Of a stretch of DNA of 64,000 nt, positions 11,910-32,527 are shown piece by piece (position 1 is the first letter of the stretch; each line of letters begins with the position of its first letter). The notes beneath the pieces were generated by a model that saw only the letters and a program-made list of their open reading frames with translations, did not search any database and was not told the origin of the DNA. This stretch comes from an uncultured bacterium (lineage in GTDB: Bacteria; Krumholzibacteriota; Krumholzibacteriia; G020349025). The DNA lies in NCBI GenBank assembly GCA_964567755.1, contig CAZMNW010000020.1, forward strand, positions 110,434 through 174,433, given 5' to 3'. Both the position numbers and the translations under genes were made by a program.

Positions 11910-12551
11910 ATGTGGAGGTTCTCAGGAATCACTGGCGCATCTGGCCGTCGAGTCGGTCTCAGCGCGGTCGCCTGGGTTTCGGCGGCTACGCTCGCGGTTG
12001 CGCTCGCCACGGCCTTGGATGATGTCGCGATCGAACCGAAGGAGCTCGCCACCCCCGCGAACGATTTGAGCTGGTTCGCGATTGGCAGGAGCGGGACGGA
12101 AAGTGCGAGCGGCGGATACGTTCTCTCGGGCTCGATCGGCCAGGCCGATGCAAGCATGCAGGCAGCAGGCGGTTACGAGTTGATCGGCGGCTTCTGGGCC
12201 AATCGCGCCCTCGGGTCCGGAGCGACCGACGTCGGCCCGGGTACTGGCGAGCCAGCTGGGCAAACACTCCCGTTGCGCTTCCAGATGCACCCCATCCGCC
12301 CGAACCCGTTCAATCCCGCCACCTTGATCGATTTCGACCTCCCCGGGCCGCGGAGAGTCGTCATTCGTCTCTACAACGTGCGTGGCGAGCGCGTCTGCAA
12401 CCTGCTGGATGCGATGCGCCCGGGTGGGCGGCACAGCGTGCAGTGGCATGGCCGTGACGATCGCGGCGTTCAGGTCGGAAGCGGTGTCTACATCGTGACA
12501 ATCGAGGCAGGCGCAGATCGCGCTCGGCAGAAGCTCACGCTCCTGCGTTAG
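11910..12551 (+). CDS. small secreted protein with FlgD-Ig-like / T9SS-type-A-like C-terminal domain
   Basis: N-terminal signal-like AVAWVSAATLAVALATA; C-terminus IRPNPFNPATLIDFDLPGPRRVVIRLYNVRGERVCNLLDAMRPGGRHSVQWHGRDDRGVQVGSGVYIVTIEAG...KLTLLR. Confidence 0.6.
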   Translation: MWRFSGITGASGRRVGLSAVAWVSAATLAVALATALDDVAIEPKELATPANDLSWFAIGRSGTESASGGYVLSGSIGQADASMQAAGGYELIGGFWANRALGSGATDVGPGTGEPAGQTLPLRFQMHPIRPNPFNPATLIDFDLPGPRRVVIRLYNVRGERVCNLLDAMRPGGRHSVQWHGRDDRGVQVGSGVYIVTIEAGADRARQKLTLLR

Positions 12552-12594
12552 CGATGCCTCGTCGTTCGGCAAGAACAGCTTTTCAAACCAAGGA

Positions 12595-14001
12595 GTGCAG
12601 GAAATGAACCCCAATCGGTTTTGGTTCGGAGCAGCGGGCCTTGCCTTGGCGCTGCAGTTGCCGGTGCCACGTGTGCAGGCCCAGTTGCCGCTCGGTTCCA
12701 CCTTCACATATCAGGGTCAACTGAAGCTGAATGGCGCTCTGGTGGATGGTTCCACAGACATGATCTTCACGCTCTACGACCGGAATCCCGGTGGGAACAT
12801 CATCGGGGCCCCGGTGACGTTTCCCGATGACGGAAGAGTCATCCCACCTGTCGACGTCACCGCCGGTATCTTCAAGGTGGAACTGGACTTCGGTGTGACG
12901 AGCTTCAACGGCTCGCGCCGCTGGCTGGAGATTCAAGTGCGTCCTCACTCGATTGGCTCCTACACTCTCTTCGAGCGCCAAGAGGTGACGGTGGCGCCCT
13001 ACGCCCTGCAGACACGTGGAATCTACGTCGATGAATTCCAGCGTGTGGGCATCGGCACCACGGCGCCCGGATGGCCCCTCGATATTGCTGCGAACCAAGC
13101 AGTCGTCCGTATGGTGTCCAGTGTGAACACCTTTGGATCGGTGCTCGAGCTGCGCAACAACGCGCTGACGCCGACCTTTATCGGGGCCGTCAACTTCGTC
13201 AACAACGCGGGGGCCTTTCGCGGTCAGATCGCCTACACGCCGAACGACGAAATGCAGTTCCGAATCGGGGGAACGCAGTCGATCGATTTCCGCAGCCATG
13301 GTCTCGAGGTTACCGGAAACGGTCAGACGTTCAACAACGCGACCATGCGTGCGATCAACACTCAGCCAAACCAAGGAATCGCCGGCTACTTCGAAAGCAA
13401 CAGCAATTACTCCACCACGTTCATGCAGAACTCCGGTGCTGGAGAATTGCTTCTCCTGAAGCACAATGGTTCTGGGAGCTACATCAACGCTGTCGACGCA
13501 GACTTCAACCTCATGTTCTCGGTGGACAATGCCGGCGTTACCCGCACCCGAGTGCTGGAAATCATGGGGGGATCCGATCTTTCGGAGCGTTTCGATGTGA
13601 GCAGCGACGGGCTCATGGATCTTGCTCCGGAGCCAGGCATGGTCGTGTGCATCGACGCCGAGAACGAGGGCAATCTCGTCGTCAGCCGTGACGCCTACGA
13701 TCGCCGCGTCGCAGGCATCATCAGCGGCGCGGGCGGCGTGAGCCCCGGAATGCTGATGGGCCAAGCCGGCACCGCCGCGAGCGGCGACCAGCCCGTGGCG
13801 CTGACTGGCCGAGTCTACTGTCGCGCCACGACGGCCAATGGACCGATCACGCCCGGGGATCTGCTGACGACATCGTCCGTCGCAGGCCACGCGATGCGCG
13901 TGGAGGATCATTCACGGGCCCAGGGCGCGGTTCTCGGCAAGGCGTTGGGAGGGCTCGCGCAAGGTGACGGCCTGGTTCTCGTCCTCGTGGGGTTGCAGTG
14001 A
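12595..14001 (+). CDS. secreted tail-fiber-like / adhesin-like protein
   Basis: Signal peptide FWFGAAGLALALQLPVPRVQAQ; N-terminal STFTYQGQLKLNGALVDGSTDMIFTLYD motif typical of bacterial tail-fiber-like proteins; IYVD...VGIGTTAP; C-terminal conserved block VAGIISGAGG...VALTGRVYC...PGDLLTTSSVAGHAM. Confidence 0.6.
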   Translation: MQEMNPNRFWFGAAGLALALQLPVPRVQAQLPLGSTFTYQGQLKLNGALVDGSTDMIFTLYDRNPGGNIIGAPVTFPDDGRVIPPVDVTAGIFKVELDFGVTSFNGSRRWLEIQVRPHSIGSYTLFERQEVTVAPYALQTRGIYVDEFQRVGIGTTAPGWPLDIAANQAVVRMVSSVNTFGSVLELRNNALTPTFIGAVNFVNNAGAFRGQIAYTPNDEMQFRIGGTQSIDFRSHGLEVTGNGQTFNNATMRAINTQPNQGIAGYFESNSNYSTTFMQNSGAGELLLLKHNGSGSYINAVDADFNLMFSVDNAGVTRTRVLEIMGGSDLSERFDVSSDGLMDLAPEPGMVVCIDAENEGNLVVSRDAYDRRVAGIISGAGGVSPGMLMGQAGTAASGDQPVALTGRVYCRATTANGPITPGDLLTTSSVAGHAMRVEDHSRAQGAVLGKALGGLAQGDGLVLVLVGLQ

Positions 14002-15083
14002 TGCCCCCCCACTCCTTGTGTGCGCTCCAGGCCTTGCGGGGAGTCACGTTCGTGGTGCTGGCCGTGGCGGCGAGCGCGCTCGTGATCCTGCCGGCGAACG
14101 CCTCTCCGTACATCGAAATGCGCGTTTCGATCAAGCTCATCCGCAACCCGGTGGACGGCTCGTTGCCGCCGAATGCGACGAGCACGAACTTCGACTCGAT
14201 GTTCACCCGTGCCAACGAGCTGCTCGCATCGTACTGGCGTGGCTACCGTTTCGTGCGCTTCGAAACGATCGCGATCGGCGGCATCTGCACCCCCTGCGAC
14301 GATTCCAGCGACGGGCCGAGTTACTGGTACGACAAGGAGATCCGGGGAACGACGAAGGTCGCCTTCGACAATCTGGCGACGAACGACCCTGCTTACGCGT
14401 GGAGCGGCTCCGCAATCAACGTGTACTTCAACAGTGGCCAGGTCGGAGGCGAGTGCGCTTTCCCTCCTGGCCAGCCGATCGTCATCGACGAGGAGATCGC
14501 TTGGGAAGGCTTCGTCCTCATCCACGAGATCGGCCACTATTTCGACTTGGCGCATACGCATGATGGGTGCGACTGCGTCGATTGCCAAGCGCAATCCTGC
14601 CCAACGCAGCCGTGCGAAGGGGATGGATTCTCTGACACGCTCGCAGACCATCCCTGCTGGTCCTTGGATGATCTCGCCATGCATCATTTCCAAGGCCGGC
14701 AATACAGCCAACTTTCCCAGGGCGAGATGGATTTGGTGGATCATGTCTACTACAACGTGATGTCTTATCACGAGCCGCCGCTCCGAAACCTGGTGGAGGA
14801 CTACATGACCGAGTTGCAGGTCGACCACTGGGCGGACACTTCACGAAGACATCGCCCTCAGGTCATGACCGGGTTCACCGGCTTCGTGGACTGGCGCAAC
14901 AACGCGGCGCCATTCAGCGGCTACAGCACGGATCCGTTTGCGACGGTGGGGGCTGCGGTCGCCGCGCCGGAGGCGTTCGATATCCTGCTCATCCGCCCGG
15001 GAACCTACTCGGAGACCTTGTACTTGAACAGCCCCGTCACCTTGAGGGTGCCGACGGGTGGGAGTGCAATCATCGGCCCATGA
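13998..15083 (+). CDS. secreted zinc metalloprotease (zincin; HExxHxxDxxH variant)
   Basis: Signal-like VTFVVLAVAASALVILPANA; FVLIHEIGHYFDLAHTHDGCDC; Cys-rich region; 4-bp overlap with the upstream gene. Confidence 0.7.
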   Translation: MMPPHSLCALQALRGVTFVVLAVAASALVILPANASPYIEMRVSIKLIRNPVDGSLPPNATSTNFDSMFTRANELLASYWRGYRFVRFETIAIGGICTPCDDSSDGPSYWYDKEIRGTTKVAFDNLATNDPAYAWSGSAINVYFNSGQVGGECAFPPGQPIVIDEEIAWEGFVLIHEIGHYFDLAHTHDGCDCVDCQAQSCPTQPCEGDGFSDTLADHPCWSLDDLAMHHFQGRQYSQLSQGEMDLVDHVYYNVMSYHEPPLRNLVEDYMTELQVDHWADTSRRHRPQVMTGFTGFVDWRNNAAPFSGYSTDPFATVGAAVAAPEAFDILLIRPGTYSETLYLNSPVTLRVPTGGSAIIGP

Positions 15084-16210
15084 TGGAGGCGAGGATGAAA
15101 ACCAGGCGTGGAGCGTTGAGATCGCCGCGCACGCTGGCGCTGAACGGTTTGGCACTTTTGTTCGTGGCACCCGTGACGGCACAGGAGATCGACGTGCGGC
15201 TCTCGATCAAGTACATCCTCGGCGCGGATGGGGTGCGGCCAACGGGATTCTACGGCACCGAGCAGAACGTACGCGATGTGATCACGGCCACAAACCGCGC
15301 CATGCAGCGTTGGGGTCGAGGGTATCGATTCGTGATCACGGAGTTTCAAGACGTGACCGTGAGTGGGGCGCCGGGCTCGGCGGCTTTCTCGACGATCTCG
15401 CCGCTCGACGAAATCGGGATGCTCGAAGATGCTGCCGAGATGGATCCGGTCGGCTACCACTGGAGAACGAATGCGACCAACATTTATATCGCCGATTGCT
15501 GCGCGGCGGCCGCGGCCATTCCCGAGGACGATGTCGGGCGGGAGATCGTCTACTTCTCGGCCGACGTGAACCTGTCGTCCACCGATCCGGGCCAGAACGC
15601 GCGCCAGACCATCTGGGCGCACGAAATCGGGCACCACTTCGATCTGATTCACCCCTGGGCCGACGACCGGGTCGCGGACACCCAATCCGAGCCGACGCCG
15701 TCCCAGTGCACGGGGCCGATCCCGCCACAAGGCACCTTTCCCTGCGCGCTCGGCGGCAGCGACGAGTGCTGCTGCTCCAGCAAAGTCGCGAACCTGCTCG
15801 CCGCCGCGCAGAGCAACGGTTGGTCGCAGCAAGAGCATGACGATCTGCGCTACAACGTCATGGGCTACATGGGGGCGGTGGACTGCGCGCTGCTCGGGGA
15901 AGACGTCATTACGATCGACACCATGCGACTCACGGACGGGCAGCTCGATCGCTGGACGGATGCCAGCCGCAGACACCATGCCGACGACACGACCGGCCTG
16001 ACGCACTTCGTCGACGAGCAGGCCACTTCGCCGTTCAACGGCTACAGCGGTGACCCCTACCTCACGGTGAGCGACGGGCTCGGCGCCGCCGATTCCCTCG
16101 GCGGCGACATCGTGTTGATCCGGGCGGGAACCTATGTCGAGAACCTGATCCTCGACCACCCGGTGACGTTGCGTGCGAGTCGTGGCGCGGTGATCCTCGC
16201 GAAACCCTGA
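15080..16210 (+). CDS. secreted zinc metalloprotease, tandem paralog of 13998..15083
   Basis: TIWAHEIGHHFDLIHPWAD; shared C-terminal block (TDASRRHH...TGLTHFVD...FNGYSGDPY...IRAGTYVENL...HPVTLRA) with the upstream paralog. Confidence 0.7.
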   Translation: MMEARMKTRRGALRSPRTLALNGLALLFVAPVTAQEIDVRLSIKYILGADGVRPTGFYGTEQNVRDVITATNRAMQRWGRGYRFVITEFQDVTVSGAPGSAAFSTISPLDEIGMLEDAAEMDPVGYHWRTNATNIYIADCCAAAAAIPEDDVGREIVYFSADVNLSSTDPGQNARQTIWAHEIGHHFDLIHPWADDRVADTQSEPTPSQCTGPIPPQGTFPCALGGSDECCCSSKVANLLAAAQSNGWSQQEHDDLRYNVMGYMGAVDCALLGEDVITIDTMRLTDGQLDRWTDASRRHHADDTTGLTHFVDEQATSPFNGYSGDPYLTVSDGLGAADSLGGDIVLIRAGTYVENLILDHPVTLRASRGAVILAKP

Positions 16211-16275
16211 CGAATGGAGAAGAGCCCGACAGCCGGTGGCAAAGCTGGTACTCTCTTGCAAAGGGAACCATCCTC

Positions 16276-18987
16276 ATGCGTACGAGCGGGCGAATGTCGA
16301 AGGATCGGCGCCTCGCGGCAGTGAGACGCCGATGCGGCGGCGTTGTCTCCATGCTCTGCGTGCTCGCGTCTTGGAACAGCACTCGCGCTTGGGCGGCCCA
16401 GGGCGACGAGCATTGGTGGGACGGGTTCGCGTGGCCGGGGGCGGGGCTCGACGGCCCGGTTTCGTGCATGGCGGTACACGGTGGCGAGCTGATCATTGGC
16501 GGCCGCTTCACGCTCGCCGGCGGCGTCGCAGTCGATCATCTGGCGCGCTGGGATGGCTCGGCGTGGAGTCGGCTCGGCGATCGCGTCCTCAGCCATCTCA
16601 GCCGGGCGTACATCGGCCACATTGCGTCTTACGGGAACGAGCTGTTCGTCGCCGGGAACTTCGATCACATCGGAGACATCCCGGCCGCGAACCTCGCGGT
16701 GTGGAACGGGGTCGAGCTCCGGCCATGGGCGGTCGAGTTGCCTTCGGGCGCCAGATTGCAAACGGTCACCCAATTCGCCGTCGTCGACGGCAAGCTCTTC
16801 GTCTGCGGTTGGTTCGATCAGGACTCGACGACGTTCTATGGACTCGCGCAGTGGGACGGCATGAGCTGGACGCTCTTACCGACCTCCGAGCTCCCGATCG
16901 GCCAACAAATCTGGGCGCTCACCAGTTACGAGGGCCGGCTCGTGGTCGGTGGTGGCTTCACCAGCATTGGTGGGCAGTCCATCCGGCGAATCGCTGCATG
17001 GGACGGGAGCCGCTGGAGCCCGGTAGGAGGTGGAATCGGCAGCGACACCGACAGCGGCGAACTGGTGCTCGCGCTAACGGTGCATGACGGCAAGCTCGTG
17101 GCCGGTGGTCGGTTCCTGATGGCAGGCGGAGTTGCGGTGGACAACATCGCGCAGTGGGACGGCGCGATCTGGAAATCCGTCGCGGGGGGAATGAACGGAT
17201 CGGTGGATAGACTCGCCGAATACGATGGGAGGCTGATCGCTGCGGGGCTTTTCTCTCGCGCCGGGTCGGGCGAGGCGTATCGGATCGCGCAGTGGGATGG
17301 AGCGGCCTGGAGTCCGGTGGGCGAATGGCTCGCGGACCAGCACATATACGGCTTCGCCGTGTTCGAGAGCGAGCTTGTAGTGGGTGGCGAGTTTCGCGCT
17401 GCTGGGTCCAACGCGGCGAGCAACGTCGCAGCTTGGGACGGGAATGTCTGGCGGGCAGTGGACCCGCGGGCACGGATCTCCGGGTTGGGCCTGAACGGGA
17501 TCGTCGAGGCGTTCGCGGTTCACGGCTCGGATCTCCTGGTCGGTGGACAGTTCACCGTGGCGGGAACACTCGAGGTTGCCGCCCTAGCACGATGGGACGG
17601 GGACTCGTGGGCCTCGTTCGGCTTGCAGGCTGAGTACGTCCGGGACATCGCGGTGGATGGAGAGCGGGTGTTCGTGTCCGGATCGCTCCGTGATCCTCTG
17701 AATGGAACTGCGCACCAGATTGCGGAGTGGGATGGGAGCACGTGGCGGTTCCTTCCACCCCCGCCGATGAGCTATCTCGCGACACTCCTCCATGTGGAGG
17801 GGACACTGTACGCCGGTGGCAGGGAAGGTGTGCTGCGGTGGGATGGAACTTCCTGGCACGATCTCGGAGCGATCGTCGGGAACTGGGTCGTTGCGCTCTC
17901 GGTGTACCAAGGGAAGCTCGTCGCAGGGGGACGTTTCACCTCGATCGGAGGAGTCTCTGCGAATCGAATCGCGATCTGGGACGGAACGTCCTGGAGTCCG
18001 CTCGGAGGGGGCATGAGTGGTGTCCAGCCCTACTCCGACGCCGACATCCAAGATCTCACGGTGCTGGATGGGAAGCTGATCGCCGGCGGACATTTCTTAT
18101 TCGCAGGGAACACGCCAGCGAGCTTCATCGCCCAGTGGGACGGCAGCGACTGGAGTGCGCTCCCGGGATTGAATGACGAGGTCCATGCGGTGGCTATCCA
18201 CGAAGGTCAAGTGATCGCAGGGGGAAGGTTCGGGCCGGCAGCCGAAACGGACGCGAGTCGCATCGCGCGGTGGGATGGAGCGCGCTGGCAGGCGATGGGT
18301 TCGGGTTGCAACTGGATCCCCTACGCCTTCGCTTCCTACGACGATGACTTGTACGTCGGCGGCGGATTCACGCGCATGGGAGGCAAGGCCTCACATTACA
18401 TCGCGCGCTGGGATGACACGCCGGTTGCGCTCAGCGTGTCGGAGCTGTGGGCCGAACGAGTCGATGGGGACGTGATTGTAAGGTGGCATGCTGCGGTAGG
18501 CGTGGAGGATCTATTGGGATTCCAAGTCTACCGAGAAGTCGATGACGGCGTGCGGATGCGTGTCACGCCAACGCTCCTTCGTGGGAACAAGTTCTACGAG
18601 CACCGCGATCTCGAGGTGCCGGCTGGATCGCTGCGCTATTGGCTGGTCGCCGTCGATCGATCGGGTGCATCGACCTGGCACGGGCCGGTGGAAGTGCAAA
18701 CGCTAGGCGCAGAGACGGCGTTTCTCCGTGTCTGGCCGAACCCGTTCAGGTCGAGCACGCGAATCGATTTCGGGTTGTCCACATTGGGACCTGCGGCACT
18801 CGATGTTTACGACGTGCGAGGGCGACTTGTGACCCGCCTGATGGCACGGACGATCGGCGCCGGCCGCCATGAGCTGATGTGGGATGGACGGGAAGCCTCG
18901 TCGCGCGCAGTGGCCCCGGGAGTCTATTGGGTTCGGCTCGCGACTCCAGTGGGATTTCATTCCGCGAAGCTGATCAAATCCCAATAG
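16276..18987 (+). CDS. beta-propeller-like repeat protein (WDGxxW repeats) with FlgD-Ig-like C-terminal domain, paralog 1
   Basis: About 14 repeats of roughly 50 aa with recurring (A/I)(A/Q)xWDG(S/T)xW(S/T)xLGxG; C-terminus LRVWPNPFRSSTRIDFGLSTLGPAALDVYDVRGRLVTRLMARTIGAGRHELMWDGREASSRAVAPGVYWVRLATP...KLIKSQ. Confidence 0.75.
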   Translation: MRTSGRMSKDRRLAAVRRRCGGVVSMLCVLASWNSTRAWAAQGDEHWWDGFAWPGAGLDGPVSCMAVHGGELIIGGRFTLAGGVAVDHLARWDGSAWSRLGDRVLSHLSRAYIGHIASYGNELFVAGNFDHIGDIPAANLAVWNGVELRPWAVELPSGARLQTVTQFAVVDGKLFVCGWFDQDSTTFYGLAQWDGMSWTLLPTSELPIGQQIWALTSYEGRLVVGGGFTSIGGQSIRRIAAWDGSRWSPVGGGIGSDTDSGELVLALTVHDGKLVAGGRFLMAGGVAVDNIAQWDGAIWKSVAGGMNGSVDRLAEYDGRLIAAGLFSRAGSGEAYRIAQWDGAAWSPVGEWLADQHIYGFAVFESELVVGGEFRAAGSNAASNVAAWDGNVWRAVDPRARISGLGLNGIVEAFAVHGSDLLVGGQFTVAGTLEVAALARWDGDSWASFGLQAEYVRDIAVDGERVFVSGSLRDPLNGTAHQIAEWDGSTWRFLPPPPMSYLATLLHVEGTLYAGGREGVLRWDGTSWHDLGAIVGNWVVALSVYQGKLVAGGRFTSIGGVSANRIAIWDGTSWSPLGGGMSGVQPYSDADIQDLTVLDGKLIAGGHFLFAGNTPASFIAQWDGSDWSALPGLNDEVHAVAIHEGQVIAGGRFGPAAETDASRIARWDGARWQAMGSGCNWIPYAFASYDDDLYVGGGFTRMGGKASHYIARWDDTPVALSVSELWAERVDGDVIVRWHAAVGVEDLLGFQVYREVDDGVRMRVTPTLLRGNKFYEHRDLEVPAGSLRYWLVAVDRSGASTWHGPVEVQTLGAETAFLRVWPNPFRSSTRIDFGLSTLGPAALDVYDVRGRLVTRLMARTIGAGRHELMWDGREASSRAVAPGVYWVRLATPVGFHSAKLIKSQ

Positions 18988-19022
18988 AGCCAAGGGCGAT
19001 CTCTGCAAGCGCGATGAACTCA

Positions 19023-19103
19023 GTGCGGCCCCTCACGAGGCCCGAATGCGTTTCCTGGTTGGAGAGGTCCCGGGGGAGATGGTACCCTCCCTCAGGAATC
19101 ATC
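19023..19103 (+). promoter_or_regulatory. conserved 5-prime leader element with hairpin (GGGGGAG...CTCCCTC) preceding paralog 2
   Basis: About 80 bp nearly identical to 24486-24565 upstream of paralog 4; stem-loop ends about 14 nt before the ATG. Confidence 0.4.
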
Positions 19104-21770
19104 ATGACTTGCTACTGCCGATGGGCACGCCGCGGGCGAAACGCTGTCCAGGACGGACTGCGTACTTTGGTGTGCACGGCCACTTTTCTCCTCTTGTCGT
19201 GGAATGGCATTGAGGCTGGTGCCGTCGAAGGCGACGAGCACTGGCGGGGCGGCTTCGTTTGGCCGGGACCCGGGCTCAATGCGGCAGCCTCGGCAATGAT
19301 CGTCTACCAGGGGAAGCTCATCGTCGGCGGCGGATTCACGCTCGCCGGGGGCATCGAAGTCGGTCGCATCGCTCAATGGGACGGGACGACCTGGAGTAGT
19401 CTAGGTTCCGGAGTGACGATCTACCCAGGCCGCGCCGGGGTCCGCGCACTCACGGTCCACGGCGACACCCTCTACGCCTTCGGAACCTTCGACCATGCCG
19501 GAGGAGTTCCTGCAGCGAACTTCGCGGCCTGGGACGGAGTGCATTGGAGTCCAAGGAGCTTCGCGTTTCCTCAAGGAGTGCAACTCGTGACCCGATACCT
19601 GGTGGCTGGCTTGGATGACAAGGTCTACGTGTCGGGCGAGTTCAGACAGGGAACCGAGCTATTCCAAGGGTTGGCGGAATGGGACGGGGTGAACTCGAGG
19701 TTCCTGGCCACGGCGAATCCATCGAGGGAGCAGCTTGGTGTTTTTGCCCTCGCCGCGTATCAAGGCAAGCTCGTCGCCGGAGGACAATTCGTCACGATCG
19801 GCGGCGTTGCTGCGAAGAACATCGCCACCTGGGATGGGACGGGTTGGAGCGAGCTCGGAGGCGGCGTCGGCGGCACCGGCTCGGTCAGCAGGTTGCTGGT
19901 ATACGACGGTCGCCTCATCGTGGCGGGACAACTCACGGTGGCCGGCATTGTGAACAACATCGCGGCATGGGATGGTGTGTCGTGGCATCGGCTCGGCGCG
20001 GGAACGAACGGCTTCATCAGCAATCTCGTCGAAGTCGACGGGAAGTTGGTCGTTTCCGGCAGCTTCACGCGGGCGGGTGGAGTCGAGACCTCGCTTGCGC
20101 AGTGGGACGGTGCTGCGTGGAGCGCGGTCGAGGGCTGGCCGCTTGGAAGTACCGCAACCCGCCTCGCGGCCTTCGGTGGAGAACTCGTGGTCGCCGGGTT
20201 GGTCTTCCGTGTGGGCGATCTGGAAGCGACCTACATCGCAGCATGGGATGGAAACACATGGCGGGTCTTGGATGGACGCGACACACGAGTAGGGATGGGT
20301 CTCAATCGGGCTGCGACGAGTTTCGCCACCTACGGCGAAGACCTGTTGGTCGGCGGGCCATTCGAGTATGCGGGAAGCGTCGCCGCGAAGGGCCTCGCGC
20401 TCTGGGATGGAGTCAAGTGGAGCTCCCTCGGGCTCGATGCGGACAATGTGAACGACATCGTGGTGGATGGCGACCGGATCTTCTTGTCCGGGCAGTTCGT
20501 TGATCCTTCCAACAGTGCGCGCTATAACCTCGCCATCTGGGACGGGGGCTCGTGGCGGTACATGAACGCACCCATGGCATTCCCCAATGAGCTGATCATT
20601 CACGAAGAGAAGCTGATCGTATCCGGATCCTCCAGTATCTCAGAGTGGGATGGAAGCTTCTGGCGTTCCCTCGGACCGGTGAGCGGTGACATTTTCAGTC
20701 TCCTCCAATACGACGGCAGGCTGATCGCCTCTGGCTCTTTCATATCGATCGGGGGTGTCGAGGCCGGGAGCATCGCGCAGTGGGATGGAACGGCCTGGCA
20801 TCCCCTCGGGAGTGGGCTGGCAGACGCGAATTCGATTTCTTCACTCGAGGTTCATTCTGGGAAACTGGTCGCGGCTGTGAGATCTAACGACAACTTTCCG
20901 GCAGTATACGTGGCAGTCTGGGACGGCGAGAGTTGGACCTCTCTTCCGAGCGTGAATAATGGGATCTTTGCCTTGAAATCGCACGAAGGCGGGCTCTTCG
21001 TCGGCGGTCTCTTCACCGAGGCAGGCGGCGTGGTGGCCTCGTCCGTCGCGCGCTGGGATGGCACGAGGTGGAGCCCGATGGGATCCGGCTGCGATTGGGC
21101 GGTCCTGGGGTTTGGGTCATGGAAAGGCGAGCTCTATGTCGGCGGAGAATTCAATCTCGCCGGCGGACGATCTGCGGATGGCCTCGCACGCTGGGACGAC
21201 ACGCCGGTAGCGCTCACAGTGTCGGATCTGCAGGCGGTGCCAATCGACGACGATGTGCTCGTACGTTGGCGTACGGCTGGAGACGTGGAAGATCTTTTGG
21301 GATTCCATGTCTTCCGCGAGGTCGACGGCGGCGAGCGTGTGCGCGTCACACCAACGCTTCTACACGGGAACACGTTCTACGAGCACCGCGATCTCGACGC
21401 GCCTGCTGGATCCCTACGTTATTGGCTTGCCGCAGTCGATCGATCGGGTACATCGACCTGGTATGGACCGATGGAGGTACGGGGGGCGATCGGATCGACA
21501 GCGCTCCTCGGCAGCTGGCCGAGCCCATTCGTGTCAGGCACGCGAGTCCATTTCAGGTTGTCCACTTCGGGACCTGCGGCACTCGATGTTTACGACGTAC
21601 GAGGGCGTCTGGTGTCACGTCTGCTGCAGGAGGAGTTCCCCGCCGGAAGACACGTGGTGCAATGGGATGGCCGTGACCAGGCGGGGCGTCCGTTGTCGCC
21701 AGGCATCTATTTCATTCGGCTCGGCACGCACGACGGGGTCCTTGCACACAAGCTCACGAAGGGGCGATGA
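19104..21770 (+). CDS. beta-propeller-like repeat protein with FlgD-Ig-like C-terminal domain, paralog 2
   Basis: N-terminus MTCYCRWARRGRNAVQ...; same repeat architecture and C-terminal domain as paralog 1; stop overlaps the start of paralog 3 (ATGA). Confidence 0.8.
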   Translation: MTCYCRWARRGRNAVQDGLRTLVCTATFLLLSWNGIEAGAVEGDEHWRGGFVWPGPGLNAAASAMIVYQGKLIVGGGFTLAGGIEVGRIAQWDGTTWSSLGSGVTIYPGRAGVRALTVHGDTLYAFGTFDHAGGVPAANFAAWDGVHWSPRSFAFPQGVQLVTRYLVAGLDDKVYVSGEFRQGTELFQGLAEWDGVNSRFLATANPSREQLGVFALAAYQGKLVAGGQFVTIGGVAAKNIATWDGTGWSELGGGVGGTGSVSRLLVYDGRLIVAGQLTVAGIVNNIAAWDGVSWHRLGAGTNGFISNLVEVDGKLVVSGSFTRAGGVETSLAQWDGAAWSAVEGWPLGSTATRLAAFGGELVVAGLVFRVGDLEATYIAAWDGNTWRVLDGRDTRVGMGLNRAATSFATYGEDLLVGGPFEYAGSVAAKGLALWDGVKWSSLGLDADNVNDIVVDGDRIFLSGQFVDPSNSARYNLAIWDGGSWRYMNAPMAFPNELIIHEEKLIVSGSSSISEWDGSFWRSLGPVSGDIFSLLQYDGRLIASGSFISIGGVEAGSIAQWDGTAWHPLGSGLADANSISSLEVHSGKLVAAVRSNDNFPAVYVAVWDGESWTSLPSVNNGIFALKSHEGGLFVGGLFTEAGGVVASSVARWDGTRWSPMGSGCDWAVLGFGSWKGELYVGGEFNLAGGRSADGLARWDDTPVALTVSDLQAVPIDDDVLVRWRTAGDVEDLLGFHVFREVDGGERVRVTPTLLHGNTFYEHRDLDAPAGSLRYWLAAVDRSGTSTWYGPMEVRGAIGSTALLGSWPSPFVSGTRVHFRLSTSGPAALDVYDVRGRLVSRLLQEEFPAGRHVVQWDGRDQAGRPLSPGIYFIRLGTHDGVLAHKLTKGR

Positions 21771-24427
21771 GACTCAACTGCCGATGGGCACGCCGCGGGC
21801 GAACCACTGTCCAGGACAGACCGCGTGCGTTGGTGTGCGGCGTCATGATCGTCGCTCTTTCGCTCACCTCGAGTGGCTGGCAGGCGAGCGCTCTCGAAGG
21901 TGACGAACACTGGCGGAGCAACTTCCTTTGGCCGGGACCCGGAGTCAACGGCATTCCCTCGGCAGCGATCGTTCACGACGGGAAGCTCGTCGTCGGCGGT
22001 GCGCTCACGCTCGCGGGAGGCACCGAAGTCGGCCGCATCGCACAATGGGACGGCACGAACTGGAGCGGTCTTGGTTCCGGGATGACCTACTATCCAGGCA
22101 GCTGCTTCGTCAACGCACTCGCCATCTACCGGGACACGCTCTACGCCTACGGTAACTTCGACCGCGCCGGAGGAGTGCCTGCAACGGACTTCGCCGCCTG
22201 GGACGGAATGCAATGGACCCCTCGGGAGTTCGCATTTCCCCCCGGGGTTCAACTCGTGAACCAGTATCTGATCGCTGGCTTGGACGACAAACTCTACGTG
22301 TCGGGCACGTTCGAGCAAGGGGGCATGAGCTTCCAAGGTTTGGCGGAATGGAACGGAGCGAGCTGGAGATTCATTGCCACGGCGAGGGTGGGGGACCTTT
22401 ACATTCTTGATCTCGCCTTGTACCAGGGCAAGCTCGTTGCCGGGGGACAGTTCACGACGATCGGCGGCGTGGTTGCGAGGCATATCGCCGCATGGGATGG
22501 AATGATCTGGAGCGAGCTCGGAGGCGGGCTCGACGCGGGCTCGAATGATGTCAGCAAGCTGGTGGTGTACGAAGGCGAACTCGTCGTGGCTGGGGAATTC
22601 ACGGTGGCTGGGGTCGTCGTCAACATCGCGGCATGGGACGGTACGACTTGGAAGCGACTCGGTGCCGGAACCAACGGCTGGGTGAATAATCTCGTGGCTT
22701 TCGACGGGAAGTTGATTGCTTCCGGCGGTTTCACGCGAGCGGGAGGCGTCGAGACGTCGTTCGCACAGTGGGACGGTACAACATGGAGCGCGGTCGCGGG
22801 CTGGCCCCTCGGACAGGTCGTCCACCACTTGGTCGTCTTCGGTGGGGATCTTGTTGTGACTGGGTCTTTCCTTACCATCGGCGATCTAGAGGCGAGCTAC
22901 ATCATAGCTTGGGACGGCAACACGTGGCGTGCCTTGGATGGTCGCGGCGTGCGTGAGGGGTTGGGTCTCGATCGGGGGGCGACCAGTTTCGTTCCCTACG
23001 GCGAGGATCTTCTGGTCGGAGGGGCGTTCGAGTTTGCGGGAAGCATTGCCGCGAAGGGTCTCGCACGCTGGAATGGAGCCAAATGGAGCTCCTTCGGGCT
23101 CGAGGCGGACAACGTGAACGGGATCGCGGTGGACGGCGACCGGATCTTCGTGTGCGGGGGGTTCGTCGATCCTTCCAACGGCGCACGCTACAACGTTGCC
23201 ACCTGGGACGGGGGCTCGTGGCGATACTCCAATGCACCCCCATACTTCCTCTACGAGCTGATCATTCACGAAGGGAAGCTGGTGGTCATGGGTACTTCCG
23301 GCATCCACGAGTGGGATGGAAGCTCCTGGCGGGTTGTCGGCACGACATACGGCGGCATCTACAGTCTCTTTCAGTACGACGGCAAGCTGATCGCCTCTGG
23401 TGGTTTCACGACGATCGGGGGTGTCGAGGCCCAGAAGATCGCGCAGTGGGATGGAACGGCCTGGACTCCGCTCGGGGGTGGTTTTGCAGATGCACGGTAT
23501 GTCTCTCAGCTCGGGGTTCACGATGGGAAACTCGTCGCGGCCGTGTCTGGGGGACTTGCGCCTGCGTACGTGGCGGTGTGGGATGGCACGAGCTGGAGCT
23601 CTCTTCCGGGCATGAACGATCGAATCCTCGCATTGACATCGCACGAAGGCAGTCTCTTCGCCGGCGGTCTGTTCACCGAAGCAGGTGGCGTAGTGACCTC
23701 GCGCATCGCGCGCTGGGATGGCGTGAGCTGGAACCCAATGGGATCCGGCTGCGATTGGGCGGTCACGGGGTTTGGATCGTGGAAAGGCGTGCTCTATGTC
23801 GGCGGAGAATTCAATCTCGCCGGCGGACGCCCCGCGGATTGCCTGGCGCTTTGGGATGACACGCCGGTCGCGCTTGCGGTGTCAGACCTGCGGGCCGAAC
23901 GAGTCGATGCAGATGTGCTCGTGACATGGCGTGCGGGCGGAGACCTGGAGGATCTCGTGGGGTTCCATGTCTACCGCGAAGACGATGACGGCGTGCGGAA
24001 GCGCCTCACCTCGACGCTTCTGCATGGAAACACAGTCTACGAGCACCGCGATCTCGCCGCGCCTGCAGGATCGCTGCGCTATTGGCTGGTCGCAGTCGAC
24101 CGATCGGGTGCGTCGACCTGGCACGGACCGGTGAACGTGCAGGGGACTATCGGAACGACGGCGCTCCTCGGCATCTGGCCGAACCCGTTCGTGTCGAGCA
24201 CGCGAATCGGTTTCGAATTGTCCTCCCCGGGACCTGCGGCGCTCGATGTTTACGACGTACGCGGACGACTGGTGACCCGCCTGATGACACGGACGGTCGG
24301 CACCGGCCGCCACGAGGCGATGTGGGATGGATGCGCCTCGTCACGCGCGGTGGCGCCCGGCGTCTATTGGGTTCGGCTCGCGACGCCGACGGGATTGCAT
24401 TCCGCCAAGCTGATCAAGTCGAAATAG
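21767..24427 (+). CDS. beta-propeller-like repeat protein with FlgD-Ig-like C-terminal domain, paralog 3
   Basis: N-terminus MRLNCRWARRGRTTVQ...; same repeats; C-terminus IWPNPFVSSTRIGFELSSPGPAALDVYDVRGRLVTRLM...VYWVRLATP. Confidence 0.8.
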   Translation: MRLNCRWARRGRTTVQDRPRALVCGVMIVALSLTSSGWQASALEGDEHWRSNFLWPGPGVNGIPSAAIVHDGKLVVGGALTLAGGTEVGRIAQWDGTNWSGLGSGMTYYPGSCFVNALAIYRDTLYAYGNFDRAGGVPATDFAAWDGMQWTPREFAFPPGVQLVNQYLIAGLDDKLYVSGTFEQGGMSFQGLAEWNGASWRFIATARVGDLYILDLALYQGKLVAGGQFTTIGGVVARHIAAWDGMIWSELGGGLDAGSNDVSKLVVYEGELVVAGEFTVAGVVVNIAAWDGTTWKRLGAGTNGWVNNLVAFDGKLIASGGFTRAGGVETSFAQWDGTTWSAVAGWPLGQVVHHLVVFGGDLVVTGSFLTIGDLEASYIIAWDGNTWRALDGRGVREGLGLDRGATSFVPYGEDLLVGGAFEFAGSIAAKGLARWNGAKWSSFGLEADNVNGIAVDGDRIFVCGGFVDPSNGARYNVATWDGGSWRYSNAPPYFLYELIIHEGKLVVMGTSGIHEWDGSSWRVVGTTYGGIYSLFQYDGKLIASGGFTTIGGVEAQKIAQWDGTAWTPLGGGFADARYVSQLGVHDGKLVAAVSGGLAPAYVAVWDGTSWSSLPGMNDRILALTSHEGSLFAGGLFTEAGGVVTSRIARWDGVSWNPMGSGCDWAVTGFGSWKGVLYVGGEFNLAGGRPADCLALWDDTPVALAVSDLRAERVDADVLVTWRAGGDLEDLVGFHVYREDDDGVRKRLTSTLLHGNTVYEHRDLAAPAGSLRYWLVAVDRSGASTWHGPVNVQGTIGTTALLGIWPNPFVSSTRIGFELSSPGPAALDVYDVRGRLVTRLMTRTVGTGRHEAMWDGCASSRAVAPGVYWVRLATPTGLHSAKLIKSK

Positions 24428-24485
24428 AGCCCCGTTGTGAAGGCGCCTGCGACGAGGCGAGCCGTAAACGGACCTTGAAACCAAT

Positions 24486-24565
24486 GTGGCCCCTCTCGAG
24501 GCCCGAATGCGTTCCCTGGTTTGGAGAGGTCTCGGGGGAGATGGTAGTCTCCCTCTGGAATCATC
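24486..24565 (+). promoter_or_regulatory. conserved 5-prime leader element with hairpin GGGGGAGA-tggtag-TCTCCCTC (24534-24555) preceding paralog 4
   Basis: Near-identical to 19023-19103; 8-bp stem with one G-U wobble. Confidence 0.4.
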
Positions 24566-27236
24566 ATGACTTGCTACTGCCGATGGGCGCGCCGCTCGCG
24601 AACCGCTGTCCTGGATAGGCAGCGGGCTTTTTGCACGGCAACTCTTCTCCTCTTCTTCTTCTCGTGGAACGGCATGACGGCTGGCGCCCTCGAGGGCGAC
24701 GAGCACTGGCGGGGCCGCTTCGTTTGGCCCGGGGCCGGGTTCAATAGCGGACCCTCGACGATGATCGTCTACCAGGGGAAGCTCATCGTCGGCGGCGGTT
24801 TCACGCTTGCGGGGGGGAACCGAAGTTGGTCGCATCGCGCAATGGGACGGCATGACCTGGAGCGGCCTTAGTTCGGGGATGACGGTCTACCCGGGAAGTG
24901 CCCTAGTCAACAAACGCGCTGTCTACCGTGACACGCTCTGCGCCTCCGGCGTCTTCGATCACGCAGGTGGAGTTCCTGCAGAGAACTTTGCTGCCTGGGA
25001 TGGAGTGCAATGGAGTCCGGGGAGCTTCGCATCGACTGCCGGGGTGCAACTGGTGACTCCTCGTCTAGTGGTTGGCGTGGAGAACAATCTCTACGTGTTG
25101 GGCGGTTTCAAGCAGGGAACCACGTCCCTCGCAGGCCTGGCGGAATGGAATGGCGTGAACTGGAGATTCCTGCCCACGAAAAATCCGTCGGCAGGGACGT
25201 TTTCCATTAGTGACCTCGCCGTGTATCAGGGCAAGCTCGTCGTCGGAGGGCAATTCACCATGATCGGCGGCGTTGCCGCGAGGAACATCGCCACCTGGGA
25301 CGGGATTGGTTGGAACGAGCTCGGAGGCGGCGTCGGGGACACCGGTTACGTCAGCAAGTTGCTGGTGTACGACGGTCGCCTCATCGTGGCTGGACGATTC
25401 ACGCTGGCTGATGCCGTGAACAACATCGCAGCATGGGACGGTGTGGCATGGCATCGGCTCGGCGCGGGAACGAACGACTCCATCGGCGAGCTCGTCGAAG
25501 TCGGCGGAAATCTCATCGCTTCCGGCAGCTTCACGCGGGCGGGCGGAGTCGAGGCCTCGCTGGCCCTGTGGGACGGTGCCGCGTGGAGCGCGGTCGCCGG
25601 CTGGCCGCTTGGGCAGGACGCTTACCGCATGATCACCTTCGGTGACGAACTCGTGGTGGTCGGGTCGTTTTTCCGTATCGGCGACCTGGAAGTAGCCAAC
25701 ATCGCAGCATGGGATGGGAACACGTGGCGTGTCCTGGATGGACGCAGCATGCGAGCAGGGCTGGGTCTCGATGCGGCGCCGACCAGTTTCGTTCCCTACG
25801 GCGAGGACCTTTTAGTCCGCGGGGACTTCGAGTTTGCAGGGAACATGGCCGCGAATGGCCTCGCGCGCTGGGATGGAGCCAAATGGAGCTCCTTCGGGCT
25901 CGATGCGGACCGAGTGAGCGAACCCGTGGTGGATGGCGACCGGGTCTTCGTGTGCGGGTCGTTCGTCGATCCTTCCAATGGCGCACGCTACAACCTCGCC
26001 ACATGGGACGGGGGCTCGTGGCGATACGCGAATGCACCCATAGCATCCCCTGGTAGACTGATCATTCACGAAGGGAAGCTGGTCGTATCAGGTTTCTCCG
26101 ATATCGAAGAGTGGGATGGAAGCTCCTGGCGTTCCCTAGGACCGGTGAGCGGCAACATTTCCAGTCTCCTCCAATACGACGGCAGGCTGATCGCCTCTGG
26201 CGATTTCACGACGATCGGCGGTGTCGAGGCGCAGAACATTGCGCAGTGGGATGGAACGGCCTGGACTCCGCTCGGGAGTGGACTGGCAAACGCCCGGAAT
26301 GTCTCAGATCTCGGGGTTCACGATGGGGAACTCGTCGCGGCCGTGCTTGGGGGATTCCCGCTTGGGTACGTGGCGGTCTGGGATGGTGTGAGCTGGAGCT
26401 TTCTTCCTCGTATGAACGATCGTATTCTGGCCCTGAAATCACACGAAGGTAGTCTTTTCGCCGGCGGTCTCTTCACCGAAGCGGGCGGCGTGGTGGCGTC
26501 GCGCATCGCACGCTGGGATGGCTCGAGCTGGAACCCGATGGGATCCGGCTGCGATTGGGCGGTCATGGGGTTCGGATCGTGGAAAGGCGTGCTCTATGTC
26601 GGCGGGAACTTCAATCTCGCCGGTGGACGCCCCGCGGACTGCTTGGCGCTTTGGGACGACACCCCGGTGCCGGTCGCGGTGTCGGAACTGCGGGCCGAAC
26701 GAGTCGATGCAGATGTGCTCGTAACTTGGCGTGCGGGCGGAGACCTGGGGGATCTCGTGGGGTTCCATGTCCTCCGCGAAGGCGATGATGGCGTACGGAA
26801 GCGCCTCACGTCGACACTTCTGCATGGAAGCACAGTCTACGGGCACCGCGATCTCAGCGTGCCTGCAGGATCGCTGCGCTATTGGCTGGCGGCAGTCGAC
26901 CGATCGGGCGACTCGACCTGGTACGGGCCGGTGAACGTGCAGGGGACGATCGGAACAACAGCGCTCCTCGGCATCCGGCCGAACCCATTCGTGTCGAGCA
27001 CGCGAATCGATTTCGAGTTGTCCACCCCGGGACCTGCGGCGCTCGATGTTTACGACGTACGTGGACGACTGGTGATCCGACTGATGGCACGCACGATCGG
27101 CGCCGGCCGCCACGAGGCGATGTGGGACGGACGCGGGAGCCCGACCCATGCGGCGGCCCATGGGATCTATTTTGTTCGCCTGGCAACTCCCAAGGGATTG
27201 CTATCCATCAAGCTCATCAAGTCGCCTTCGAAGTAG
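24566..27236 (+). pseudogene. beta-propeller-like repeat protein paralog 4, disrupted by +1 frameshift in a G7 homopolymer (24814-24820)
   Basis: Track ORF 24566..24871 (MTCYCRWARRSR...FTLAGGNRSWSH) and ORF 24807..27236 (...GGTEVGRIAQWDG...) are the same gene in two frames; the junction lies at gcGGGGGGGaacc, where paralogs 2 and 3 read gcgggaggcacc (one base fewer). Confidence 0.7.
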
Positions 27237-27246
27237 TTCCGGACCG

Positions 27247-27607
27247 CCGGACCTCCGTAGATTTACGGATGGCTCTTGCTCCTGTGTGGCTCTCCCTCGC
27301 CGTCGTGCCACCGACTTGGACTTCCGCCGACCCGTATTGCCACTCGATTGCGTTTCCCTTGAGTGAGAGGTCTTGCGTGAAGGTGGTACCCTCTTGCTGG
27401 AATCAGACAAGGTTTGGTACGGGCGGATGGTGCGCCTTCGGCGCACCCATGCTCGCGATGGAACATGCGCCGTTTTGGGCTCGGTCACGCTCTTCGCCTT
27501 TTCCCCTCTCCAGAAGCGGCATGCAGGCTGAGGCTGCCGAGGGCGACGAGTCTTGGTGGGGTGGCTTCGTTTGGCTGGGGCCCAGGGTAAACGCTCACGA
27601 CGCGTGA
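27247..27607 (+). pseudogene. remnant of a fifth beta-propeller paralog (leader plus first ~60 codons only)
   Basis: 27380-27600 is homologous to the leader and N-terminal coding region of paralogs 2 and 4 (ggtaccctcttgctggaatcag...; MQAEAAEGDESWWGGFVWLGP vs AGALEGDEHWRGRFVWPGAG); homology stops at about 27600 with an in-frame TGA. Confidence 0.5.
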
Positions 27608-27645: not shown

Positions 27646-30600
27646 GTGGTGAACCAACCAGATTCTCGCCAGCGCGCGCGCGCGTTCCTTCGCATGTGCG
27701 ATCGAAGCGGGCGCGTGTGGGCGTGCGTCTATCTGTTCTTGCACATGGGCTTGCTTCTCCCCGCCACGGCTCACGCCCAGCCACCGCTCTTGAGCGCGGA
27801 TCCTGTGTGGGTCTCGCCTTCCCACGCGACTCGCGGCCTCGCTCTCGGCGACGTGGACATGGATGGCGATTTGGATCTCGTGCTCGGCAACTTCCGCGAG
27901 GCAACGACGCTGCATCTCAACCAGGGCGGGCGTTTCGATCCTGCACCGGCGTGGTCGTCACCGGTTCAGCCGACGACGAGCGTGGCGCTCGGCGACGTGA
28001 ACGGAGATGGCGCCATCGATCTCGTGTGTGGCAATGTGAATCAAAGCTCACGATTGTACCTCAACGTGGGGGGCCGGTTCGGAGATACGCACAACTGGCT
28101 TTCCGAAGGCCATGCCACAGAGGACGTCGCGCTGCTGGACGTGGAGGGCGACGGTGATCTCGATCTCATCTGCGCCAACCAAGACCGAAGCGTGCTCTAC
28201 CTGAACGAAAATGACCAACTCGGCAATGTTCCGCACTGGAATTTCCTCACCAGTGCATCGGCAACAGCATGTGGCGACTTGGATGGAGATGGGGATCTCG
28301 ACGTGGTGTTCGGCACATCTCCGAAAGCATCGTTCCATCGCAATGAAGGCGAGATTTTCTCGAGCGCCATCAACTTCTCGCAAGACCAGTCGACTTCGGG
28401 CATCGCCTTGGGAGACGTGAATGGAGATGGCGATCTCGATGTCGTCCTCGGAGGCAGCAGCACGACGACGCTCTATCTGGGCCAGGGAAGTTCCTTCAAA
28501 GTTTTCCCGGATTGGATTCTCCAAGCCCCGAACACCACGGACATTGCGCTAGGAGACGTGGACGGAGATGGAGATCCAGATCTCGTCTGCGGCCATGCTG
28601 ATCAAAGCACGAAGTTTTACCTCAATGAATCCGGGACGTTCACCAACACTCCGTCGTGGACGTCGCAAGTGCACGCGACGCAGAACATTGTGTTGGGCGA
28701 CGTGGACGGCGACGGCTGGATCGATCTCGTGTGCGGCAACGAGGATGAAGGCACGGTGCTCTATACCAATACGGCTGGACGTTTCGACGCAACCCCTGTT
28801 TGGTCGTCCTCGGAGTTCCGCACGTTCGATGTGGTGCTCGAAGACGTGGATGGGGATCACGACTTGGACGTGTTCCTCGGCAACTCTGGCCAGAGCACCA
28901 TGCTCTATCTCAACGCCGGGGGGACGCTGAGCGCTTCGCCCATCGACGTGTCGCGAGCACACTTCACGCAGGGGATCGCCGTCGGCGATGTGGATGGCGA
29001 CGGTGACCCAGATCTAGTCTGCGGCAACGGGCTCTTCGGCAACACTCTCTATCTCAATGTCGGAGGTGTGTTCGGTCCCGACCCGGTGTGGACTTCGCGG
29101 CCGCATGGAACGCTCGACGTGGCACTTGGAGATGTCGATGGGGACGGTGACTCGGACCTCGTGTGCGGCAATCCATTCCAGCCAACTGTGCTGTATCGCA
29201 ACGAAGGCGGACGCTTCGGCAGTGAACCCGCTTGGATGTCGCAACTTCACGATACCCGCAGCGTCGCGCTGGGCGACGTGGATGTCGACGGAGATCTGGA
29301 TCTAGTCTGTGGCAACATCAATCAGCGCACGACGCTCTATCGCAACGAGAACGGAATTCTCGGGACTGTGCCATTTTGGTTTTCGCAGGCGCATGCGACT
29401 GCGGACGTCGCGCTGGGCGATATCGACGGCGATCGCAGACCCGATCTTGTCTGTGCCAACACCAACCAGGAAAGCGTCGTTTATCGTAACGAGGGGGCGG
29501 GTTTCGGCGACGCTCCCCATTGGCTGTCCAAGACTCAGGCGACAGCCGCGGTCACGCTGGGCGACGTGGACGCCGACGGCAGGCTCGATCTCCTTTTCGC
29601 CAATCACGCCGAGCCGGCGACGATTTACCTCAACGGGGAGTCCGGTCTCGCGGCCGCTCCCGCATGGTCGTCACCAGTGCAAACGGCGAGCAGCATCGCC
29701 GCAGGGGACCTGGATTTGGATGGTGATCTCGACTTCCTCTGTGGAGGCAACATGCAGAGCTCGAGGTTGTACACTGGAACCTCGAGCCGTCCTTTCCGAG
29801 GCAATCCTCAGACGCCCGTACATCACTTGCCCAATCAGGATGCCGCACTGCGCTACGCGCACGTCGAGGTGCAGGGCGCGAATTGGGCTGCAGTGCGCTT
29901 GTTGGCGGTCGACCTCGAGTCGGATCCAGTGTGGATCCTGGCGGAGTATCAGTTCCGTGGCGAGCCCGAATGGCATCCTGTGGATTCGGCTGACACTTCA
30001 GGGCTTTTCGGACCGTTCGACACCTCGCCTCTCGGTGCCGCGCACGTGCTGTCATGGAAGTTGGATCGCATCCCCGTCGATCCCCGCCCGGTCGTCCTGC
30101 GGTTGAAGGCGATCTCTCACCCGCGCCGCACGGGTGAGATTCGCCACATTGGCGCTTCTCTCGTGGATGTGGGTGTGGTCGACGTGCGGCGACCGGTCAT
30201 CGCCGCATCCGTTTCCACTCTGGAGTTTTCCACCGTTACCGTGGGCGACACGGTGACGGCAATGGTCACGATCTCCAATCGTGGCAACGAGCTGCTCACG
30301 TTGAATCAGGTCGTAACTGCCTCGCCGGAGCTACGCGTCGCGCAATCTACGCCTTTCGCCATCGACCCAGCGGGACACGTCGACCTGGAGGTATTCCTCG
30401 AGCCGCTCGCTCCACGCCTCGACTGGGGAGATCTCTCGATCGAGAGCAACGACCCGTCCACGCCACTGCTCACCATCGATATCGCGACGGATGTGCGCGA
30501 CTTGTCGTTCACCGCACGGCTGCTCACAGCGACACCGGAGGTCCCCGTGGGCCAAGCGCTCACGGCCGTGCTCACGCCCGCGGCTCTGGTCCGGATCGAA

Positions 30601-32481: not shown

Positions 32482-32527
32482 TTCTTTTTTCGGCGAGCCC
32501 AGTCCGAAGGCCCGGACGAGGACGAAA

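Follow-up and report, generated by a model that had tools for sequence, protein, structure and literature searches.

Does a tandem array of related genes for secreted proteins point to a system of surface variation, or to a longer history of duplication, exchange and loss? We asked this question of four consecutive genes, here called P1 to P4, that encode repeat-containing proteins on contig CAZMNW010000020.1 (assembly GCA_964567755.1) of an uncultured bacterium of the Krumholzibacteriota. The DNA analyzed, referred to below as the window, comprises 64,000 nucleotides (positions 110,434 to 174,433 of the 218-kb contig), and all coordinates are positions within it. A sequence-only reading of the window had described these genes as four paralogs and a truncated fifth copy, and had taken them as signs of recent duplication with gene conversion and decay, as in adhesins or antigenic variation. 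The reading we favor, with a probability of about 0.8, is a lineage-specific, birth-and-death tandem expansion of a gene for a secreted or surface-exposed propeller protein, with local gene conversion between the copies.

The Array Consists of Old Duplicates

The four long open reading frames (ORFs) lie head to tail on the plus strand, between positions 16276 and 27236, and match one another in a self-BLAST with E = 0.0. The sequence-only reading had stated as much, and the repeat architecture and FlgD-like C-terminal domain it ascribed to the proteins were found in all four copies. The gene sizes of 2.4 to 2.9 kb given there proved to be artefacts of ORF boundaries, as each of the four genes is 2.66-2.71 kb long. 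The figures of 2.4 and 2.9 kb arose because a frameshift splits the ORF of P4 and because the longest ORF of P2, which opens at a GTG at position 18879, runs 5' of the real start codon. Alignment with P3 and P4 places this start at the ATG at position 19104.

The amino acid sequences of P3 and P4 are 73% identical, those of P2 and P4 71%, and those of P2 and P3 67%; P1 is 48-51% identical to the others. At the nucleotide level, the respective identities are ~79%, 78-80%, 75-77%, and ~59-61%. The longest exact repeat between any two copies is 40 nucleotides. Synonymous divergence (dS) and the ratio of nonsynonymous to synonymous divergence (dN/dS) were calculated as Nei-Gojobori estimates. In the propeller region, dS is 0.44-0.58 among P2, P3, and P4 and 1.4-1.7 between P1 and the other copies, and dN/dS is 0.3-0.4. 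Of the recent duplication proposed earlier, the tandem duplication stands, but these distances, together with amino acid identities of 48-73%, contradict its being recent. The array is a set of old duplicates under purifying to relaxed selection, and the copies are neither recent nor diversifying cassettes. Positive selection on the propeller loops was considered and rejected; among P2-P4, dN/dS is 0.35-0.41 in the loops versus 0.33-0.45 in the strands.

The best homologue from outside the array is ~37% identical (a match with 53% identity is the P1 paralog itself). Because no outside protein exceeds this value, we conclude that all four copies arose within this lineage.

Gene Conversion, Decay, and the History of the Array

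Synonymous divergence varies greatly from one part of the genes to another. Between P1 and P3, dS is 1.41 in the propeller region, 0.54 in the immunoglobulin-like (Ig) domain, and 0.35 in the C-terminal sorting domain; the identity of these two copies at four-fold degenerate sites is 0.36 in the propeller versus 0.66 downstream of it (Fisher p=1.2e-6). Between P3 and P4, dS is 0.20 in the Ig domain versus 0.55 in the propeller, and between P2 and P4 it is 0.28 at the 5' end. In the final 60 codons, P1 groups with P3, and P2 is the outlier. In addition, a BLASTN match of 3.2 kb pairs the tail of P1, the following intergenic region, and P2 with the tail of P3, the following intergenic region, and P4. 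The uneven dS, the incongruent groupings, and the 3.2-kb match therefore indicate gene conversion or unequal exchange between copies, in line with the gene conversion claimed from the sequence.

The 4-bp coupling of P2 and P3 that had been described is present; the stop codon of P2 and the start codon of P3 overlap as ATGA (21767-21770), and P3 has neither an intergenic region nor a leader of its own. This junction is best read as a deletion that joined both genes. Downstream of P4, the truncated fifth copy was recovered as a decayed 5' stub. It begins with a leader-like stretch and has lost the start codon of the family (CAGACAAGG instead of CATCATGAC). Its predicted signal peptide is degraded, with the hydrophobic core gone; the conserved mature N-terminus "AEGDESWWGGFVWLGP", corresponding to the first ~20 mature codons, is kept and is followed by a stop codon. 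In BLASTN searches the stub matched P2 with E=3e-10 and P4 with E=9e-10. The stub and the frameshifted P4 support the decay that had been claimed for the array. The coordinates of the array and its associated elements are summarized in Table 1.

Table 1. Positions of the array genes and associated elements in the window.
Feature	Positions	Strand	Description
P1	16276..18987	+	903 amino acids; most divergent copy; predicted signal peptide, 14-blade propeller region, Ig-like domain, sorting domain of the type IX secretion system (T9SS) type
P2	19104..21770	+	888 amino acids; ORF, N-terminus aligned with P3 and P4; Pfam; TIGR04183
P3	21767..24427	+	886 amino acids; predicted signal peptide 1-42, blades ~57-700, Ig-like domain 704-795, sorting domain 799-886
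P4	24566..27236	+	two frames, 24566-24871 (frame 2) and 24807-27236 (frame 0); repaired product 889 amino acids
Leader of P2	19027..19103	+	conserved; directly 5' of the P2 start codon
Leader of P4	24488..24565	+	conserved; 5' of P4
Run of seven G (G7) plus AA	24811..24819	+	one base more in P4 than in P2 and P3
5' stub of fifth copy	27340..27607	+	decayed; directly 5' of the first FG-GAP gene

A history that would account for these observations starts with unequal crossing-over, in which P1 would have branched first and P2, P3, and P4 later. The copies would subsequently have diverged under purifying to relaxed selection, with conversion homogenizing short tracts, namely the Ig and sorting domains and the leader together with the 5' coding end. 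The loss of one intergenic region would have fused the stop of P2 to the start of P3. One copy would have been truncated to the 5' stub, and another would have received the 1-nucleotide frameshift.

Domain Content, Predicted Fold, and Export

All four proteins match DUF5122 (PF17164) above the Pfam gathering threshold of 27 bits, with scores of 66 for P1, 38.1 for P2, 40.6 for P3, and 36.0 for P4. The threshold for Rax2 (PF12768; 28.8 bits) is exceeded by P1 (54.3), P2 (35.1), and P3 (36.2); the P4 fragment scores 22.5 and falls under it. These matches place the array proteins in the DUF5122/Rax2-type beta-propeller repeat family, with a predicted fold of propeller blades. Each protein contains 13 WDGxxW motifs and a degenerate 14th (WDDTPV). 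An AlphaFold2 model of P3, made from 19 aligned sequences, has a mean predicted local distance difference test score (pLDDT) of 85 and a predicted template modelling score of 0.71. It consists of 14 four-stranded blades (residues ~57-700) and beta-sandwiches at residues 704-795 and 799-886, preceded by an unstructured N-terminus in which the putative signal peptide forms one helix (residues 20-33) of low pLDDT. The model agrees with the beta-propeller-like repeats described earlier, and the 14 Kelch-like WDGxxW blades most likely form two 7-bladed beta-propellers. When the full-length model was compared to the PDB with Foldseek, only propeller and fibronectin type III matches were returned, with low template modelling scores. 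Sequence comparison gave Kelch propellers, the FlgD Ig domain, and the PorU C-terminal domain as the nearest proteins of solved structure.

The FlgD_ig C-terminal domain is carried by all four proteins and reaches its cutoff only in P1 (28.6 bits) and P2. The NCBIfam model for T9SS type A sorting (TIGR04183, Por_Secre_tail; cutoff 23) is matched by P2, P3, and P4 with 26.4, 29.1, and 30.3 bits, respectively. At the N-terminus, a basic n-region and 12-14 hydrophobic residues precede AWA, AGA, or ASA, after which comes a conserved EGDEHW; judged from the sequence, this arrangement is a probable Sec signal peptide, with an AXA motif for cleavage.

From this domain content we infer that the array proteins are probably exported, may be displayed at the surface, and may bind ligands there. 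Sec would export the protein, and the type IX secretion system would then recognize the C-terminal domain and either release the propeller protein or anchor it on the outer surface. At the cell surface, the propellers would serve as ligand-binding modules. A role as an adhesin is plausible for a propeller with a putative T9SS tag.

Leaders of P2 and P4

The leader shared by P2 and P4 had been described as ~80 bp long and near-identical. The two genes do share a leader, but it is 91% identical over 81 nucleotides (19027-19106 versus 24488-24568), and exact repeats do not exceed 40 nucleotides. This identity is above the ~75% observed at four-fold sites (binomial p=1.6e-4). The leader is not repeated elsewhere in the window, and apart from it no high-identity short repeat pair was found. 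A TGGTAC(C/T)CTC block is common to the regions upstream of P1, P2, and the stub, and a variant of it occurs upstream of P4.

Two explanations for the leader were tried and rejected. For a structured RNA or riboswitch, Rfam gave nothing relevant at E<=1, and the folding z scores were 0.07, -1.65, -0.40, and +1.09 versus shuffled sequences; the P2 leader, with z=0.07, folds no better than its shuffles. The other was a sigma-54 promoter. The sigma-54 consensus is TGGCAC-N5-TTGC, with 10 nucleotides between the GG and GC dinucleotides. The TGGTAC-N4-TTGC sites of P1 and the stub are one base short of this spacing, and P2 and P4 do not have the TTGC. These sigma-54-like sites are located at 16240-16265 (5' of P1) and 27380-27400 (stub); a sigma-54-dependent NtrC-type regulator and its kinase are encoded at 5216-8316, with the NtrC-type activator itself at 6874-8316. 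The intergenic regions contain no more predicted sigma-70 promoters and terminators than expected from shuffled sequences. In our reading, the leader is an ordinary promoter and 5' untranslated region, the similarity of which is kept by constraint, by conversion, or by both.

The Array Is Part of a Variable Block

The G+C content of the window is ~63%. From 11910 to 43790 all genes are on the plus strand, and most have a T9SS sorting domain; in the window as a whole, this domain is present in at least five genes other than those of the array. The co-directional run comprises a small FlgD_ig protein, two reprolysin-like paralogs, the propeller array, and three giant FG-GAP proteins. Further cargo is encoded at 48182-53945, where an M4 protease and, on the minus strand, a cadherin/CBM96 protein are found.

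In the closest available relative (L082; ENA ERZ28493113), the NtrC regulator is 90% identical to the one in the window. Named homologues of this regulator reach ~64-65% identity at best and come from Gemmatimonadota, candidate division TA06, Bacteroidota, and Ignavibacteriales, in keeping with an FCB-group-like placement. The two sequences are collinear over window positions 8-8832 and 55159-57247, with ~76% nucleotide identity. Between these flanks, the relative has 6.2 kb of different genes versus 46.3 kb in the window (8832-55159), and no homologue of the propeller or FG-GAP proteins was found in its 6.2-kb interval. The segment from 8832 to 55159 contains nearly all of the T9SS-tagged cargo in the window. 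A mobile island was considered and rejected, as genes for a tRNA, an integrase, or a transposase were not found and the G+C content is unremarkable. The 46-kb block is a variable region without recognizable mobility genes.

Directly downstream of the propeller array lies a second tandem array (27706-42899), which encodes three giant FG-GAP/VCBS proteins with 41-50% amino acid identity to one another. These proteins carry an ASH/choice-of-anchor-D domain in addition to the T9SS sorting domain. A -1 frameshift near 34412-34420 divides the middle copy into two frames (32528-34444 and 34479-37340), and a 5' stub of 173 codons (37346-37866) consists of a predicted signal peptide and two repeats. 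The FG-GAP array repeats the birth-and-death pattern of the propeller array.

Upstream of the propeller array, the two reprolysin-like paralogs (14001-16210) are adjacent, secreted, and M12B-like with weak Pfam matches; they share 31% amino acid identity and are preceded by a secreted protein of 465 amino acids without a family match (12604-14001). The minus strand at 9284-11694, divergent from the 32-kb cargo run, encodes an extracytoplasmic function (ECF) sigma factor (PF07638) and a Ser/Thr kinase that contains TPR repeats. They are a candidate pair of regulators for the cargo block; a promoter motif in common was not found. Also on the minus strand and inside the variable block (43864-48020), a fusion of a Ser/Thr kinase with a STAND NTPase (nSTAND2) stands beside an AAA/STAND-like protein with PEGA domains, and these genes are signalling- or defence-like. 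The GC skew is strongly positive between 16001 and 26000 (0.09-0.15 versus ~0-0.05 in the flanks) and is also elevated at 36-38 and 52-54 kb. It probably reflects coding for Gly-, Trp-, and Asp-rich proteins on one strand, not replication. The conserved flanks (1450-5067 and 55205-64000) contain respiratory genes. Their products are GcvH-like proteins, a NapC/NirT-type cytochrome, cytochrome b, several multihaem cytochromes with fused cytochrome-b561-like domains, and a 4Fe-4S/NrfD pair.

Alternative Explanations

If the array were an antigenic-variation or cassette system, its expressed copy would receive sequence from silent ones through frequent conversion. The mosaic dS, which shows that conversion took place, and the head-to-tail arrangement with common leaders would agree with such a system. 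However, none of the copies is a near-identical donor; P2-P4 are 76-80% identical in nucleotide sequence and ~59-61% identical to P1, with no exact stretch above 40 nucleotides. All copies begin with a start codon and a predicted signal peptide of their own, P1, P2, and P4 are each preceded by a separate upstream region, and none of the copies gives the impression of being silent. Conversion is seen in the sorting and Ig domains, which are conserved, and not in the putative binding surface, and dN/dS remains at 0.3-0.4 without any excess in the loops over the strands. Near-identical cassettes, flanking inverted repeats, and DNA tandem repeats were not found, and neither a recombinase, an invertible element, nor a reverse transcriptase was found in the scanned ORFs and sequence of the window. 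The inverted pairs that could have indicated phase variation by an invertible promoter are short, imperfect, and at chance level, with no recombinase domain among the scanned ORFs; a reverse transcriptase domain, which a diversity-generating retroelement would require, was not found among them either. The antigenic variation suggested by the sequence-only reading thus did not hold up, and we consider a cassette system highly improbable. Apart from the G7 tract in P4, the array shows no feature of antigenic or phase variation.

This tract is the place where the reading frame of P4 is broken. A 1-nucleotide insertion at GCGGGGGGGAACC (24809-24821) results in the reading GCG GGG GGG A ACC, where the aligned sites are GCC GGG GGC ATC in P2 and GCG GGA GGC ACC in P3. 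With one base removed, P4 encodes an uninterrupted protein of 889 amino acids; the public annotation contains only a product of 794 amino acids (P0003). The dN/dS of P4 versus P2 and P3 (0.35-0.42) is not above that of the intact copies, and because of this the frameshift is either very recent or an assembly error. We weighed the possibility that P4 is a contingency locus, toggled by slipped-strand mispairing at the G7 tract (24811-24817), with the paralogs as alternative surface variants. The sole frame disruption in the array sits exactly at this tract, which is one of four homopolymers of at least 7 nucleotides in the 64-kb window, and the absence of any sign of long-term relaxed selection in P4 implies that the disruption is recent or reversible. 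However, nothing comparable to the tract exists at the corresponding site in P1, P2, or P3, a single assembly cannot reveal polymorphism in tract length, and the frameshift in the neighboring FG-GAP array lies outside any homopolymer, which better fits ordinary decay or assembly error. A run of seven G is short for efficient slippage. We regard a contingency locus as quite unlikely. The same low standing applies to a broader version, in which the 46-kb block would be a "secretome contingency island" with the G7 tract as a real switch, the T9SS cargo of the propeller and FG-GAP types being turned over or toggled, and the 5' stubs (27340-27607 and 37346-37866) providing promoters or leaders to the genes that follow them.

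The number of copies could also have been inflated or collapsed during assembly, or the contig could be chimeric. The contig is derived from a metagenome, and an independent Logan assembly of SRR9952632 breaks at position 19124, within a stretch of 32 nucleotides common to the leaders of P2 and P4. A break in a 32-nucleotide repeat is expected for a graph with k=31. Moreover, the copies differ at 20-40% of positions and can be resolved by ordinary reads, given that exact stretches do not exceed 40 nucleotides; the Logan contig (L081) is 100% identical to window positions 8046-19124, a segment that covers the transition from P1 to the P2 leader; and the G+C content and codon bias are uniform along the array. 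Because of the absence of exact repeats above 40 nucleotides and the perfect match to the Logan contig, collapse or inflation of array copies is unlikely, and an assembly artefact of any of these kinds has very little probability in our view. The array is real, correctly assembled, and ordinary, and it is not a variation system.

A further possibility concerns function: the paralogs might be glycan-binding proteins, each copy tuned to a different polysaccharide, like the double-propeller sensors of the Bacteroides hybrid two-component systems (HTCS). We consider this unlikely. The HTCS sensor domains (PDB 4A2L, BT4663; 3OTT; 3V9F) are 9-10% identical to the window proteins. Unlike the HTCS, the latter lack transmembrane, kinase, and receiver modules, in place of which they bear a secretion tag, and no Pfam match to Reg_prop (PF07494) or Y_Y_Y (PF07495) was found in the propeller proteins of the window.

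The expansion of a secreted or surface propeller gene by birth and death remains our preferred explanation, and several points weigh against it. The frameshift in P4 may be a sequencing or polishing error and not decay. The sorting tag of P1 scores 21.2 bits with TIGR04183, marginally under the cutoff of 23. No match to the T9SS machinery (PorK/L/M/N, Sov, PorU, PorV) was obtained among the scanned ORFs of the window, and because no machinery gene is located there, use of the pathway is read from the tag itself. Finally, the literature searched yielded no functional description of DUF5122/Rax2-type propellers.

Breadth of the Family and Comparison with Known Systems

At E<=1e-3 the propeller family has 82,377 cluster representatives, of which 9,497 remain at E<=1e-30; its members come from Zixibacteria, Planctomycetota, Ignavibacteria, Eisenbacteria, Bacteroidota, Verrucomicrobiota, and others. 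Proteins that combine DUF5122/Rax2 with a T9SS type A domain are found in metagenome-assembled genomes, with dozens of matches (e.g., P0007-P0010 and P0013-P0016). They contain the same repeat family, are ~800-950 amino acids long, and have the same order of propeller followed by FlgD_ig/Por_Secre_tail; their annotation is "T9SS type A sorting domain-containing protein" or "hypothetical protein". In contrast to these proteins, the four-copy array with a stub is specific to the contig studied here.

Two or more tandem copies were present in 10 of the 80 loci fetched from other phyla. These arrays, from Phycisphaerae (L022, L027), Zixibacteria, Armatimonadota, and others (L001, L006, L017, L036, L037), are likewise head to tail and have 2-4 or more copies, with 3-4 copies at 31-60% amino acid identity in the Phycisphaerae. 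The Phycisphaerae copies (L022, 6834-16336; L027, 9812-18109) end in a conserved dockerin/EF-hand-like double repeat (..DFNGDG.ID..D...FLN..) followed by GC and have no T9SS tag. It appears that different lineages join the propeller module to anchoring domains of their own.

Kelch propellers (KLHL20, IVNS1ABP, KEAP1) show distant profile similarity to the array proteins (E=3e-9 to 1e-2) and have the GG doublet and the conserved W in common with them; unlike the array proteins, they are six-bladed, eukaryotic, and cytosolic, and the Pfam Kelch models gave no match to the array proteins at E<=0.01. The T9SS cargo of Bacteroidota (SprB, RemA, gingipains) has an N-terminal Sec signal, which the array proteins are predicted to have as well, and likewise a C-terminal type A sorting domain. 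However, the passenger domains are unrelated, the host of the array is not a cultured member of the Bacteroidota, and the machinery was not seen in the window.

The array suggests no new mechanism. It is a clean and well-resolved case of birth-and-death evolution with local gene conversion in genes for secretion cargo, and its value as such is modest. The double-propeller family to which it belongs is very large, is often found in tandem, and is paired with the surface-sorting tag of the respective lineage. A biochemical handle on any member of this family would annotate very many genes.

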